From NCBI GenBank assembly GCA_965200965.1, contig OZ241744.1:160001-224000 (forward strand): a stretch of DNA of 64,000 bases, written 5' to 3'. Source of the stretch: an uncultured Candidatus Binatia bacterium. Lineage in GTDB: Bacteria; Desulfobacterota; Binatia; Bin18. Every line of letters starts with the position of its first letter. Positions within the stretch are counted from its first letter, which is position 1. A program made the translations under genes and the position numbers. The notes below the pieces were generated by a model, which saw only the letters and a list, made by a program, of their open reading frames with translations, ran no database searches and was not told where the DNA came from. Of this stretch, positions 16,503-30,749 are shown piece after piece.

Positions 16503-18686
16503 ATGAGCACACCACATCCCGAGCGTGCCGGGCGCACGCTTTCTGAGTATAACTCCAAACAGCTTTTAGCCGGCTATGGGGTGTCCGTTCCCCAGGAGAC
16601 GCTGGTTGAGAGTCCTCAGGCCGCGGTTGAGGCGGCCAGCCGTATCGGTTTTCCGGTTGTGGTCAAGCTGTGTGGCGACCGGATCGCTCACAAAACCGAG
16701 CGAGACCTGGTCCGCCTGGGGCTGTCCGACGCCGAGGCGGTCCACCGGGCCGCCACCCAGTTGTGGCAGCGGCGTCAGCCCGAAGACGGCGATGTTGGCC
16801 TGCTGGTGACCGAGATGGTTCATGGCCGACGGGAGCTGATTGCCGGGATGATCCATGACCCGCAGTTCGGGGCGTGTGTCCTGGTTGGTCTGGGCGGTAT
16901 TCTGGCCGAAGCGGTCGGAGATGTGGCCTTTGGCTTGGCTCCGCTGGAGCCGGCCGAGGCGCTGCGCATGGCCGAGGCGCTCCAGACCCGCCGCCTGCTG
17001 CAGTCCTTCCGGGGCGAGCCAGCCCTCGATATGGATGCCTTGGCCGTCGCCCTGGTCGGCCTCGGACGGCTGGCGGCTGAGCGTCCAGATATTCACAGTG
17101 TTGATGTGAATCCTGTTATTGTGGCGGGGGGCAAACCGGTTGCGGTTGACGCGCTGGTCGAACTCGGCGCACCGCACCCCGTCCCGCCTGTCCCGCCCGC
17201 CCGTCGGCCCGAGGAGATACTGGAACGTTTTCGTCCCCTGTTCCATCCGCGCGGGATTGTGCTTGCCGGGGCTTCGAGCCACCCCGGCAAATTTGGCTTT
17301 GTGTCGCTGCACAATCTGCGCCGCTTCGGTTATACGGGCGATATTTTCCCGGTCAATCGGGACGGAGCGGAGATTCTCGGCACGCCGACCTATCGGGATA
17401 TTGCCGAGATTCCACCCGGCAAAGCCGACCTGGTGTTTGTGTGTACGCCGGTTGGGGCCAATGTCGGCCTGCTGCGGGCCTGCGCACAACGCGGCGTTCG
17501 GGCGGCATTTGTGGCCAGCGGCGGCTACCGCGAGGCCGGCCCGCAGGGACGCCGCTTAGAAGACGAGTTGGTGGCAACTGCTAATGAGCTGGGTATGGTC
17601 CTGGCCGGACCCAACGGCCAGGGTGTGATCTCAACCTCGGTGTCGATGTGCGCCCAGATTGTCGCCCCCTATCCCCCTGCGGGGCGGATTGCGGTGGTCA
17701 GCCAGAGCGGGAACCTGCTGTCGTCCTTCCTCAACTACTCGGTCCAGACCGGGGTGGGGGTGAGTAAAGCGATTTCGGTTGGCAACTCGGCCCAGACGAA
17801 TATCGCCGATTACCTGGAGTATTTTGCCGCTGACCCCGAGACGGATGTAGTGCTGGCTTATCTGGAAGGCATTCCTGACGGGCACGGCTTTGTCCAGGCC
17901 GTGCAAAAACTGACCCCCACCAAGCCCCTGGTTGTGCTCAAAGGGGGGGTAGCGACGGCCGGTCAGCGGGCAGCCCTGTCCCATACCGGCTCGCTGGCTA
18001 CCGACGACCGCGTGTTCCAAGGCGTGTGCCGTCAACTCGGCATTCTGCGTGCCCCGAGCGTTGAGCACGCCTTTGAATGGGCGGCCAGCTTGGCCACCCA
18101 GCCGTTGCCGGCCGGCCGGCGGGTGATCGTGTTTACCACGGTTGGCGGCTGGGGGGTGCTGACGGCCGATGCCTGCACCCAGGCCGGGCTGGAGCTGATT
18201 GCCCTGCCCGAGGAGATTGAAGCCAGGATCAGCAGCATGGTGCCGGACCGCTGGAGTCGGAATAATCCGATCGATCTGGCCGGCGGAGAAACCCGCGATA
18301 CCGTTCCCGAGATTCTTGATCTGCTGTGCGGCCATCCCGATGTTGATGCGGTCTTGCAGTTGGGCTTGGGCATACAGGGTGCTACCGCCAATCTGTTTCA
18401 GACCGGCCAGTTCTACCCCGGCCACGGCCTGGACCGCATGGCCGATTTTCACCAACGCCAGGAACGGCGCTATGCCCAGGCCGCGGCCGCGGCCTCACAG
18501 CGCCACGCCAAGCCAGTGCTGAGCACGACCGAACTGGTCTATACCGACCGGGACTACGCCAACGCCGGCCCGCTGGCCGTGCGCGAAACAGGCCGGGTGT
18601 GCTACCCCAGCGCCCATCGAGCCGTTGCCGCCCTTGGCGCGCTGGTGGAGTACGCGCGGTTTCGTCGGCAGGTTGTTGCCCTGTGA
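16503..18686 (+). CDS. Acyl/acetate-CoA ligase (ADP-forming), ATP-grasp domain N-terminal and CoA-binding domains C-terminal
   Basis: LSEYNSKQLL, GFPVVVK, HKTE, DVNP..AVDAL, then GAS..PGKFG, GPNGQG, SQSG, SHTGSLA, NPIDL. Confidence 0.9.
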   Translation: MSTPHPERAGRTLSEYNSKQLLAGYGVSVPQETLVESPQAAVEAASRIGFPVVVKLCGDRIAHKTERDLVRLGLSDAEAVHRAATQLWQRRQPEDGDVGLLVTEMVHGRRELIAGMIHDPQFGACVLVGLGGILAEAVGDVAFGLAPLEPAEALRMAEALQTRRLLQSFRGEPALDMDALAVALVGLGRLAAERPDIHSVDVNPVIVAGGKPVAVDALVELGAPHPVPPVPPARRPEEILERFRPLFHPRGIVLAGASSHPGKFGFVSLHNLRRFGYTGDIFPVNRDGAEILGTPTYRDIAEIPPGKADLVFVCTPVGANVGLLRACAQRGVRAAFVASGGYREAGPQGRRLEDELVATANELGMVLAGPNGQGVISTSVSMCAQIVAPYPPAGRIAVVSQSGNLLSSFLNYSVQTGVGVSKAISVGNSAQTNIADYLEYFAADPETDVVLAYLEGIPDGHGFVQAVQKLTPTKPLVVLKGGVATAGQRAALSHTGSLATDDRVFQGVCRQLGILRAPSVEHAFEWAASLATQPLPAGRRVIVFTTVGGWGVLTADACTQAGLELIALPEEIEARISSMVPDRWSRNNPIDLAGGETRDTVPEILDLLCGHPDVDAVLQLGLGIQGATANLFQTGQFYPGHGLDRMADFHQRQERRYAQAAAAASQRHAKPVLSTTELVYTDRDYANAGPLAVRETGRVCYPSAHRAVAALGALVEYARFRRQVVAL

Positions 18687-18789
18687 TAGAAAACAGGCTA
18701 AGGATTTGGTGCTGTCCTCTCGGCTCTTGTCCGGTGGCTGAGGAGGGGGTATAAGGCCGTTTTGACAGGGGACCCGTGAGTTGTCTGAA

Positions 18790-19191
18790 ATGGATGCGAC
18801 TGCATACAAGGACATCAAAAGCAGGCTCCAGCATCTGTATACAGATGACGACCGCCCGTGGTTGGTGGGGTTCAGTGGCGGGAAGGACAGCACCCTTGTT
18901 GCTGCCCTCATCTTCGAGATCGTTCTCTCGCTTCCTGTGGAAAAACGGAGAAAGCCCATCTCTATCGTCTGCACAGATACCCGCGTCGAGATTCCTGCCA
19001 TCGTCGAAATGACAGAAGGAACCTTGCGGAAGATGCGTGCGTATTCTGAAAAGAACGGGCTCGGTATAGATGTGCATCTCCTGAGACCTCCTGCTGACCA
19101 GTCGTTCTGGGTCAACATCATTGGGCGTGGGTATCCTCCAATTTTGCTGAACTTGCGGAATGCGGAGTACACTTCTCGCCTCACACCTTAA
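18790..19191 (+). pseudogene. dndC: Truncated DndC (DNA phosphorothioation sulfurtransferase, PAPS-reductase family), N-terminal fragment
   Basis: RPWLVGFSGGKDST, TDTRVEIP, SFWVNIIGRGYPP, then loss of similarity before the expected RWCT motif; visibly AT-richer than flanks. Confidence 0.8.
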
Positions 19192-27838: not shown

Positions 27839-27913
27839 GGGGGTAGTGTGATTATGGCTATTGCGGTGTGTATGTCAAGCCGGGGGTGTCTCAAGGCCGA
27901 GTTTTGACATTTT

Positions 27914-27938: not shown

Positions 27939-28403
27939 ATGAAACTGTCAAAAAAAGCGGAGTATGCGCTGCGTGCCCTGACGTGTCTGGGCGCGCCCGG
28001 GGCACCACCGGTGTTGTCCATTCAGGAGATTGCTGACCGGGAGAAGATCCCCAAAAAATTCCTGGAACAAGTCCTGCTCGCCCTCAAAAAAGCCGGTCTT
28101 GTCCAGAGCAGCCGGGGCAAAGCCGGGGGCTACACACTGCAAGCCGCGCCGGCCCGGGCCACCCTCGGCGACATTATTCAGGCGATCGAAGGGCCGTTTG
28201 CGCCCTTGCCGTGCGCGGATAGTGCGGCCCCGGTCAAGTGTCCGGATTGCCCCAGTTTGGAGCATTGCTGGCTGCGCGGAGTGATGACAGAAGTCGGGCA
28301 GGCGGTAGCGGCCGGCTGCGGTCGGTTTACGCTGGTCGATTTATGTCGGCGGGCCGCGGCGGGCCGGCGGCGGTCAGGCCAGGCCTTGATGTATGAGATT
28401 TAG
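27939..28403 (+). CDS. Rrf2 family transcriptional regulator (CymR/IscR-like)
   Basis: MKLSKKAEYALRAL, IPKKFLEQVL, SSRGKAGGY, Cys cluster, LMYEI tail. Confidence 0.92.
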   Translation: MKLSKKAEYALRALTCLGAPGAPPVLSIQEIADREKIPKKFLEQVLLALKKAGLVQSSRGKAGGYTLQAAPARATLGDIIQAIEGPFAPLPCADSAAPVKCPDCPSLEHCWLRGVMTEVGQAVAAGCGRFTLVDLCRRAAAGRRRSGQALMYEI

Positions 28404-28496
28404 GCCACGCTTGACTCTGTGGGCGGGCTTTCCTAATGTTCGCGCACAGGTTTTCACAGGTGGCTCGTACGCCACACGACAAGCAAGGGGGCGTGT

Positions 28497-29114
28497 ATGG
28501 ACCGCAAATTATTTGACTATCTCGCCTGACCGTTCGCCATGAGGACGAGGATCGTGCTCAAGGAAAAAGCTCTCGATTTTGAACGGATTCTTATCGACCT
28601 GCCCGGCAAGGAACAAAAACAGCCCTGGTTTTTGGCGCTCAATCCATACGGCAAGGTTCCGGTGCTGGTTGAAGAAGGTGCCTGGGTGGTTGAATCTGCC
28701 CTGTGCAACGAATACCTCGAAGAGCGATACCCCACGCCCCGGCTGGCACCCACAGATGCTCGGGACAAAGCCGAGATGCGTTTGTGGGTCGAGTTTTGTA
28801 ATAGTCAGTTCGTTCCGCCGGTGCTGAGCATCATGTACGAAAAACGTAAACCGGCCGAAGAGCAGAATGCGGACAAAATCCGGCACAACCAGGAAAAGCT
28901 CGCAGCCCTGCTACCACACCTTGAGCAGCAGTTAGGCGGGCGTGACTACCTGATGGGTGAATACGGTATTGCTGACCTGAGCTTCACGCCTTTTCTGACC
29001 CTGGCCGAGCGGGCGGGCGTTGATTTCGACCTGTTTCCAAACGTTGCCATCTGGCATCAGCGGCTCAAACAGCGGCCTGGCTATGAAGAGGTGAAGATCG
29101 GGTTTGCAGCCTGA
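28497..29114 (+). CDS. Glutathione S-transferase, probable selenoprotein (UGA at 28527-28529 read as Sec)
   Basis: RBS AAGGGGG then ATG 28497: MDRKLFDYLA-UGA-PFAMRTRIVLKEK, NPYGKVPVL, ESALCNEYLEE, YGIADL. Confidence 0.85.
28540..28560 (+). other. Bacterial SECIS-like hairpin
   Basis: TGAG-G-ACGA-GGA-TCGT-G-CTCA; G-containing apical loop about 19 nt after the UGA. Confidence 0.6.
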
Positions 29115-29144
29115 GAGGTGTCAGAGCCTCTGCTGTCCACGTCA

Positions 29145-30749
29145 ATGAAACGCTCCGCCGCCCGCCGCCCGCCCGCTCCGCTTCTGAGCACGGCTCCGAA
29201 CTATCCCCGGTGGCGGGCGAGCGGGATGGCGGCACTCAGCCTCGTCTTGCTGTCCGCCCCGCAGCTCAGCGCCCAGACGGCCAAGCTCTATCTGGACTCC
29301 GCGGTCGCGGCCATGGGCGGGACCGAGGCCCTGCTGGCAATTCAGAGCCAGCAGATCATGGCCTGCGGAGAAAACTTCGAACCCGCCCATGCTATTCGTC
29401 CCGGCGGCCCAGCGCCCAAGGTCTCGCGCTTCTGCTATATCCTGCTGCGCGACTTTGCCGGCGGCCGCTACCGCTATGAGTGGCAACGCGACACCTTTTT
29501 CCCGGTTCCAGACCGGTCAAGCTACACAGAAATCAGCGACGGCTACAGCGGCCTTATCCTTGGTGCCGATGGCCCACGCAGCCCCCGCCAGCGGCCGGCG
29601 TCGGCCGCCCGGATTGCCATGCGCAAAAAAGAACTTGGCCGGTCGCCCGTCTCGGTGCTGCTGACGGCTCTGTCCCGACAGACCTCGCTCCTGCGGCTGC
29701 GCGATCAGCTCATTCGTGGGCGGCTGCACCATGTGATCGCCTACGATGACGGCGGGAAATCGGTCGTGGCCGCCCTCGACGCCCGGACCCGCCTGCTGAC
29801 CAGAGTCCAGTTTCTCGAAGATGATCCCCTGTACGGCGATAGCCACAACGAACTCTTCTTCGCCGATTGGCGGCAGGTGGGTGAGATCACAATGCCATTT
29901 TCCTCCCTGTGGCGGGTGAACGGCCAACGCATTATGACCGAACGAGTTGAGTCGATTGACAGTAACGTCCCGATTGCAGACGACGCCTTTGCGCTGCCGC
30001 CGCATATTGTACAGGCCGATAATGGCAGTCCGGCCCGGGGTGAATTGAGCTCGCACTGGCTGTTGCGCCAGATCGCTATGGCCAGCCCGGTGGATGAGGA
30101 GCAAACCCGGATTCGGATGCGTGATGTCGCCCCAGGGGTGGTGCATGTCACCGGAGGCAGCCATCACAGCTTGGGCATCGCCATGACCGACCACATCATC
30201 GTTGTGGAAGCTCCGCTGTACGAGGCGCGCTCGCTGCGGGTTATTGACAGCCTGGAGCGGCGGTTTCCCGGTAAACCCCTGCGGACGGTCATCAATACCC
30301 ATTTTCATGCTGACCACGCCGGCGGACTGCGAACCTATGTCGCGGCCGGCATCAGCCTGGTCACCAGCCAGGCCAACGCGGCGTTTTTGCAACGGATTGT
30401 AGATGCCCCGCATACCGTTATGCCCGACCGTTTGCAGCACTCTCCGAGGCCGGTGGTTATTGAAACCGTTGGGCGGGACAAGAAAGTCCTGACCGACGGC
30501 CCCAGGACGGTCGAGATCTATCCGGTTGACACCTCGCACGCCGAGGGCATGTTGATGGTGTTTCTGCCCCAAGACAAGCTGCTGTTTGTGGCCGACCTGT
30601 TCTCTCCAGGCTCCCGGCGTCAGGTTCGAGCCGGGAGCCAGGAGGTGCTGGCGGCGATTGAAGCCTACGGCCTCGAGGTCAAGCGGCTGGTCGGGGGACA
30701 GGGCGGTCTGGCTCTCATCGCCGAGTTGTACCAGGCAGCCGATGAGTGA
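29145..30749 (+). CDS. Exported MBL-fold metallo-hydrolase with N-terminal extension (start uncertain)
   Basis: Signal-peptide-like LSLVLLSAPQLSA; NTHFHADHAGG, HAEGML, FVADL. Confidence 0.8.
   Translation: MKRSAARRPPAPLLSTAPNYPRWRASGMAALSLVLLSAPQLSAQTAKLYLDSAVAAMGGTEALLAIQSQQIMACGENFEPAHAIRPGGPAPKVSRFCYILLRDFAGGRYRYEWQRDTFFPVPDRSSYTEISDGYSGLILGADGPRSPRQRPASAARIAMRKKELGRSPVSVLLTALSRQTSLLRLRDQLIRGRLHHVIAYDDGGKSVVAALDARTRLLTRVQFLEDDPLYGDSHNELFFADWRQVGEITMPFSSLWRVNGQRIMTERVESIDSNVPIADDAFALPPHIVQADNGSPARGELSSHWLLRQIAMASPVDEEQTRIRMRDVAPGVVHVTGGSHHSLGIAMTDHIIVVEAPLYEARSLRVIDSLERRFPGKPLRTVINTHFHADHAGGLRTYVAAGISLVTSQANAAFLQRIVDAPHTVMPDRLQHSPRPVVIETVGRDKKVLTDGPRTVEIYPVDTSHAEGMLMVFLPQDKLLFVADLFSPGSRRQVRAGSQEVLAAIEAYGLEVKRLVGGQGGLALIAELYQAADE

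Follow-up and report, generated by a model that had tools for sequence, protein, structure and literature searches.

The 64,000-nucleotide stretch of Candidatus Binatia DNA analyzed here, which we call the window, carries a gene for a glutathione S-transferase (GST) fold protein with an early in-frame TGA. This codon most likely codes for an active-site selenocysteine (Sec) and is not a stop. The features of the locus are as follows, in window coordinates.

27851-27878, minus strand: near-consensus sigma-70 promoter (TTGACA-16-CATAAT, 11/12) facing the sulfite reductase operon, before the Rrf2 gene
27939-28403, plus strand: Rrf2-family regulator gene, divergent from the genes for sulfite reductase, APS reductase and cysteine synthase
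28485-28491, plus strand: Shine-Dalgarno (SD) site AAGGGGG, 5 nt ahead of the ATG at 28497
28497-29114, plus strand: gene for a 205-residue GST-fold protein, predicted Sec at residue 11
28527-28529, plus strand: in-frame TGA, predicted Sec codon, in a U-P-F-A motif at the start of helix α1
28539-28541, plus strand: internal ATG (Met15), the wrong start taken by gene callers, overlapping the base of the hairpin
28540-28560, plus strand: predicted bacterial SECIS, a stem of nine positions with one G·G mismatch and the loop GGA at 28549-28551
28656-28661, plus strand: Val54-Pro55, cis-Pro loop of the predicted glutathione site (P55 invariant in 117/117 aligned sequences)
28692-28697, plus strand: Glu66-Ser67, predicted contact for the glutathione γ-glutamyl group (E/D and S conserved)
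29118-30749, plus strand: gene for a metallo-β-lactamase-fold protein of 543 residues, directly 3' of the GST gene (no resistance family over cut-off)

The frame from the ATG at 28497 comprises 205 codons, and its sole internal stop is the TGA at codon 11, in the context D-Y-L-A-TGA-P-F-A-M-R-T-R-I-V-L. The terminal stop at 29112-29114 is also TGA. The original prediction of a TGA in frame at codon 11 within A-U-P-F-A is thus confirmed in the sequence. In the ORF list, the gene begins only at 28539, giving a 191-amino-acid protein that is 14 residues short. At codon 11, public contigs show TGA. Positions 28497-28569 are unchanged in contigs of four of four public runs compared (four studies, one or two of them possibly the source of the window), so that the start, the TGA and the hairpin are identical even in a strain that differs at 17 other places in the stretch. 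Among the public data sets listed as sharing sequence with the window, over half of it or more or over a small share, five are labeled sponge metagenome; none is an RNA data set, which bears on expression in neither direction.

Three locus searches returned 87 Ca. Binatia records with over 55% identity that cover the site, which reduce to 57 distinct orthologous sequences; L090 and L151, cut at contig ends before the site, were left out. Codon 11 is TGA in 56 of these and TGC in one, and TAA or TAG was never seen there. Ahead of the TGA, the residues K-L-F-D-Y-L are 98-100% conserved as amino acids with freely variable codons. Among 301 genomes of the class, the clade is confined to the window's order, where 46 of 50 genomes match across the site; TGA is present in 45 of them and absent from one. 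One of the remaining genomes has a match cut by a contig end, and three have no close match. The column had been predicted to be the Cys site of Cys-type GSTs, and the homologs agree: the orthologs have TGA or, in one lineage, TGC, and 97 more distant relatives have mainly Cys (49) or Ser (40). The nearest relatives outside the clade are uncharacterized Binatia GSTs at 36-47% identity, with the motifs CPFC, CPFA or SPYC. Six of the records (L065, L076, L085, L088, L089 and L092) are titled "uncultured Enterobacteriaceae" yet carry the Binatia-type gene. These titles look like mislabels, and at least three of the records match genomes placed in the window's family.

The start signal is also conserved. 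SD energies were computed against an anti-SD motif, and the duplex at the upstream ATG of this gene has an energy of -10.3 kcal/mol. The mean over the 57 orthologs is also -10.3 kcal/mol at the upstream ATG, compared with +0.4 at Met15; values of -5 kcal/mol or lower occur at the upstream ATG in 57/57 and at the internal ATG in 0/57. An in-frame ATG lies 9-12 codons upstream of the TGA in every ortholog, and one of them (L019) has Gln (CAG) in place of Met15. The predicted ribosome-binding site and ATG at 28497 are therefore well founded. In the database, 98 of 110 clade proteins are nevertheless called from Met15, with an MRTRIV start.

Downstream of the TGA lies the hairpin TGAG-G-ACGA-GGA-TCGT-G-CTCA, with its GGA loop 19 nt past the TGA and a G·G opposition at 28544/28556. 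Folded alone, the 25-nt hairpin has an energy of -9.4 kcal/mol (z -3.45), a value that one of 200 shuffled sequences equals; it is no longer significant when 54 or 74 nt of context are included (z -0.50 and -0.65). Bacterial SECIS elements are described in excerpts of PMC13188914 as having a loop of 3-9 nt, a G in the first two loop positions, a spacing of 16-37 nt and a minimum free energy of -7.5 kcal/mol or lower. The hairpin here has a 3-nt loop beginning with G, a spacing of 19 and -9.4 kcal/mol, in agreement with all four. A loosely defined hairpin of the same geometry follows 4246 of the 113131 TGA triplets in the genome (3.75%), so a lone hairpin is weak evidence and it is conservation that settles the matter.

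The GGA loop is invariant in 57/57 orthologs. It forces AGG at Arg+7, where all 57 have this codon although AGG accounts for just 5.7% of the Arg codons of long ORFs in this genome; two other conserved Arg positions have CGN codons only. The pair 18/24, formed by the silent third positions of Thr+6 and Ile+8, is G-C in 40 orthologs and A-U in 17, with no mismatch. The Arg+5/Val+9 pair is A-U in 25, G-U in 16, G-C in 13 and broken in 3, and the G·G mismatch of this gene's hairpin, found in 2 of the 57, is among those broken pairs. We also counted pairs in 37 hand-picked sequences, 35 of this clade and 2 of a second lineage described below, which give 36 distinct rows. Paired cells reach 97.2% versus 32-50% for slid partners, and two-sided changes occur at three pairs; since the rows are kin, these counts stand for fewer events than sequences, and shuffle controls overstate their significance. 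A hairpin of bacterial SECIS geometry with a G-containing loop about 19 nt downstream had been proposed from this one sequence, and it proves to be conserved and covarying.

We then looked for the machinery that Sec insertion needs, as the original prediction had advised, and all of it is in the genome. The single contig encodes selA (582 bits), selB (367) and selD (396), all above curated cut-offs, together with a tRNA-Sec(UCA) detected by two methods. Among 51 tRNAs, the UCA anticodon occurs only in tRNA-Sec. In selD, too, the frame contains a TGA, and a GGC-loop hairpin follows it at +18. Family-wide, selA is present in 53 of 55 genomes and selD in 54 of 55. A glutathione synthetase above cut-off and a GCS2-family ligase are also encoded, so the co-substrate is likely made. 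SelB carrying Sec-tRNA would bind the GGA-loop hairpin and insert Sec at the TGA, and we regard this step as close to certain.

Several observations on selenoproteins fall outside the GST gene. In genus g8, all 28 genomes searched have a selD without an in-frame TGA, in an open frame of about 760 residues; the other genera, unlike g8, have the Sec type. A motif-and-hairpin scan of the window's genome was too noisy to use as a whole (1996 candidates, the 3.75% background, and the selD hairpin missed), and only two leads were taken from it. Outside the window, at G000:C1:3294461-3294560 (+) (L234, L236), lies a candidate micro-selenoprotein, tiny and zinc-ribbon-like, reading C-P-I-C...C-R-N-C-G-F-I-E-S-TGA-H-D-C. 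Four of four congener sequences (L237-L240) keep the TGA and have a stop right after H-D-C, which is lost in the window's genome; the congeners also have a GGC-loop hairpin at +19 that lies largely beyond the stop and in one of them shows a compensatory change. About 10 further genomes of the family have matches that contain the TGA. This candidate has no NCBIfam match, and no matching row was recognized in the table of PMC13188914 as far as its excerpts go. Another ORF, L233:327-860 (-), at about 444226-444759 of G000:C1, reads H-W-TGA-P-F-C (a UxxC motif) followed by a hairpin, and had no NCBIfam match at 1e-6. Judged by these features, it is probably another selenoprotein of this genome, which we take to be AhpC/TSA-like. 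Elsewhere in the window, ARAGORN calls a tRNA-Phe(AAA) at 16513-16602 (-), inside a long coding frame, and this call is probably spurious.

The predicted protein is a GST by domain and by fold. Pfam GST_N and GST_C are both above cut-off (PF13409 at 73.2 bits against a cut-off of 25), and no NCBIfam family reaches its cut-off. An AlphaFold2 model, built with Cys at residue 11 and 117 sequences, has a pLDDT of 96.5, with β1 at residues 3-7 and α1 at 12-23. The listed start at 28539 would therefore delete the first β strand and the active site, as had been argued. A model from 27 rows has an N-terminal pLDDT of 57.7, because 25 of those rows are database proteins truncated at Met15. Against known GST structures, the model reaches a TM-score of up to 0.91 and a Z score of 26.9, with an rmsd of 2.0 over 202 residues. 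In the fold searches, the model pairs with phi, delta, epsilon, nu and Ure2p enzymes (20-29% identity), and no one class stands out. By sequence, the best solved relatives are SspA-like (E 1.6e-24); omega enzymes are distant (E about 1e-17), weaker than both the SspA-like and phi matches. Pfam, the model and the fold searches agree on the two-domain build, a thioredoxin-like N domain and an all-helical C domain. GSTs form dimers.

The residues expected at a glutathione site are conserved: K41 (the basic residue before α2), V54-P55, E66-S67 and D160. The roles of the cis-Pro loop and the E-S pair at this site are described in excerpts of PMC4138524. C70 and C101 are invariant in 20 clade rows. 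Residues 11-14, U-P-F-A, fit the C-P-[F/Y]-A motif, with the helix running from residue 12. Taken together, the locus very probably holds a real, mis-annotated, Sec-containing GST.

The family has precedents. Sec-GSTs were predicted in 2005 from the Sargasso Sea (four sequences; PMC1088965), and the GOS survey of 2008 had 12 sequences (PMC2398784); in its excerpted text, PMC1976440 gives none for its data set. PMC9312934 keeps the family as predicted and uncharacterized, and PMC13188914 (2026) lists a GST-like family under "predicted with high confidence," going by the excerpts of both. Neither Binatia nor Binatota is mentioned in the main text of the latter. Outside subscription journals, we found neither a biochemical characterization of any natural bacterial Sec-GST nor a paper on selenoproteins of Binatia. 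The original prediction called Sec-GSTs rare and little characterized. The family is still listed as predicted only; "rare" understates what is known of a family listed since 2005 and found here in 46 of the 50 genomes searched in this order.

The GST-like prokaryotic selenoprotein family, as described in part in these sources, shares with the window protein the PF13409 N-terminal domain, Sec at the Cys position of homologs, a U-P-aromatic motif that lies about 11-15 residues into the protein, and a bacterial SECIS in frame. The four sequences of 2005 fall into V-T-U-P-W-V and R-R-U-P-[YW]-A groups, whereas this clade reads Y-L-[AP]-U-P-[FY]-A, a distinction drawn by eye only. This clade is near-fixed in one Ca. 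Binatia order (sponges, soils and sediments), in contrast to the sporadic family in the excerpted surveys of 2005-2026. On the sequence evidence, it is most likely a new branch of the family predicted in 2005, its lineage differing by eye from the sequences of that year. Natural Cys-GSTs have the same motif at the start of α1, namely, omega (CPFA), lambda (CP[F/Y]A), DHAR (CPFC/S) and beta enzymes, and have in common with the window protein the cis-Pro loop, the E-S pair and the two-domain GST fold (PMC4138524, in part); the window protein differs in its predicted selenium in place of sulfur. In omega GSTs, an N-terminal extension puts the motif near residue 35, whereas the window protein has 205 residues and no extension. 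The engineered seleno-GSTs excerpted from PMC9944854 (rat T2-2 and human Z1-1) also have Sec at the GST glutathione site, but they are artificial Ser-to-Sec variants with peroxidase activity, and the window protein is natural. An algal family (PMC7539508) likewise has predicted Sec/Cys GST pairs but is eukaryotic, and the likeness is one of excerpted description only.

The single TGC version (L065, L140, L235 and P0008; genome G274) is nested inside the TGA clade in both of our trees, one of which is a quick tree. Its frame is intact, and the GGA hairpin is still there, containing an A·C mismatch. G274 retains selA, selD with its TGA, and a partial selB at a contig end. Because the TGC version is nested in the TGA clade, keeps the hairpin and sits in a genome that retains the Sec genes, its sequence reads as a Sec-to-Cys reversion. 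With these genes kept, loss of the Sec machinery does not explain it. Bacterial Sec-to-Cys substitutions are rare and documented mainly for FdhA and SelD, according to excerpts of PMC13188914, so the present revertant, in which the hairpin persists, adds modestly to these cases. The gene can apparently also be lost: in a congener (G007; L040, G007:C2:301842-302457), an early stop in codon 5 and a single inserted base near codon 98 break the copy, while eight neighboring ORFs match without stops.

Two other types of Sec-GST were seen. The second lineage (family f4; L038, L039 and L219-L230) encodes proteins of 186 residues, about 39% identical to the window protein, that read H-T-U-P-Y-A-H-R-T-R-I-V-L. 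In this other family, 47 of the 48 matches that span the site carry TGA there, and several of its genomes have two or three copies. All 12 loci inspected have the TGA and an AGGA-centered hairpin, with a weaker stem in two, and the SECIS is nearly the same as that of the window gene despite the low protein identity. In this family, selB was found in 35 of 41 genomes; it was missing from the search results for G027 (240 contigs, 100% complete by markers) and five others, so the link to the machinery is less clean for the second lineage. A third type (L037, G025:C15:397043-397627, -) reads U-P-Y-C and has a 7-pair hairpin with a GAT loop. At the thresholds used, it was found only in its own genome among the 301 of the class and in 0 of 251 of the phylum. 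Two related database proteins, P0171 and P0261, start just past the motif, as if truncated.

When the residues coded by the SECIS are masked, each lineage has good support and the three do not group. In topology tests, all three together are weakly rejected (p-AU 0.038), and A+B (0.079) and A+C (0.070) are not rejected; these values come from 42 hand-chosen rows with long branches, 12 residues masked from the active site onward, and groups that were named once a first tree had been seen. The sequences suggest independent gains of Sec among the Binatia GST lineages.

What the enzyme does may be judged from its Cys counterparts. By analogy, the full-length protein of 205 residues with Sec at codon 11 probably removes glutathione from small-molecule adducts. 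The motifs CPFA and CP[F/Y]A belong to the omega and lambda Cys-GSTs, enzymes that carry out deglutathionylation. Excerpts of PMC4138524 describe GSTs with Cys at the start of α1 as attacking glutathione adducts, becoming glutathionylated and being freed by a second glutathione (GSH), mostly without conjugating or peroxidase activity. In the window protein, the selenolate at the start of α1 would attack the glutathionylated substrate and release the product, leaving the enzyme carrying glutathione as a selenyl-sulfide. A second GSH would then free the enzyme and yield GSSG. The motif has no second Cys, so a cycle of the monothiol type is expected. We consider this selenolate and selenyl-sulfide cycle, modeled on Cys-GST chemistry, somewhat better than an even prospect.

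The main rival is that the same selenoprotein acts as a glutathione peroxidase, in which peroxide would oxidize the selenol and two GSH would re-reduce it. The engineered Sec-GSTs have glutathione peroxidase activity near that of natural enzymes (PMC9944854, in part), so selenium may change the reaction, and their Sec position and glutathione site match those of the window protein. However, natural Cys-GSTs mostly have no peroxidase activity (PMC4138524, in part), and the clade has a natural Cys version with an intact frame, which fits a chemistry also possible for Cys. We judge peroxidase function to be a serious but distinctly less probable reading than deglutathionylation.

A less probable reading still is that the enzyme handles sulfur or selenium together with its neighbors, reducing glutathione persulfide, S-sulfoglutathione or selenodiglutathione under Rrf2 control. 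An Rrf2 gene does end 93 bp before the GST gene, and it is divergent from genes for sulfite reductase, APS reductase and cysteine synthase. Within 1.6 kb upstream, the Rrf2 gene is present in 17 of 29 neighborhoods, and sulfite reductase is nearby in 16; the metallo-β-lactamase-fold gene downstream is the most conserved neighbor, at 26. In 12 of the 29, however, the Rrf2 gene is absent, and the neighborhoods are kin rather than independent. Further downstream are tadA, tRNA-Ser and a thiol-disulfide oxidoreductase gene that is presumably ccdA-like. The housekeeping gene tadA is also kept (20/29), so the arrangement resembles gene order that was simply inherited within a single family. Read from the gene order, the neighborhood is compatible with such inheritance and does not show shared function. 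The GST gene had been described as just downstream of a sulfur regulator. Its position is right, but "sulfur" goes further than the data, as the Rrf2 gene scores 68 bits against a CymR cut-off of 195 and is found in the 17 neighborhoods only. Between 27750 and 31400, the sole good promoter match is the one facing the sulfite reductase operon, and the two terminator-like sites (3.1 expected) do nothing to define a GST transcript. Also in the window, a short ORF at 18781-19191 (+) contains an S-G-G-K-D-S motif, and we assume it to be a truncated DndC/PAPS-reductase-like fragment.

It is quite unlikely that Sec is inserted into a non-catalytic binding or regulatory protein of GST fold, similar to SspA. 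The two best sequence matches of solved structure are named SspA and have C-P-F at the same place, but the NCBIfam SspA equivalog scores 53.1 bits against a cut-off of 314. In addition, Sec and the SECIS are kept across an order, which indicates selection on the chemistry of the residue.

More improbable again is a real stop at the TGA, with translation of 191 residues from Met15 or a dead gene. This would agree with the database calls from Met15 and with the broken congener copy. It would leave the start without an SD in 57/57 orthologs, one of which has Gln there, and would not account for the conserved residues upstream or the TGC version; the thioredoxin-sheet strand β1 would also be lost. 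Finally, reading of TGA as Trp, Gly or Cys under an alternative genetic code is largely excluded, as nothing beyond the in-frame TGA itself points to it, the gene's own stop is TGA, the sole UCA-anticodon tRNA is tRNA-Sec, and the selA and selB frames have no internal stops.

The reading of this gene as a Sec-containing GST has practical consequences for the family. About 100 database protein clusters of the clade are without their active site and need re-annotation. The clade is a clean test set, as it is near-fixed across an order and its SECIS is well defined. The natural Cys revertant is about 70% identical to the window protein and can be expressed without Sec machinery; its nested position makes it one half of a ready-made natural Sec/Cys pair for testing what selenium adds. 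A bolder and rather speculative proposal is that Ca. Binatia Sec-GSTs arose more than once, in two or three lineages, that two of these converged on a GGA-loop SECIS in R-T-R-I-V, and that they are natural glutathione peroxidases of GST fold. If true, they would be the natural counterpart of a GST-fold peroxidase activity so far seen only in engineered seleno-GSTs.
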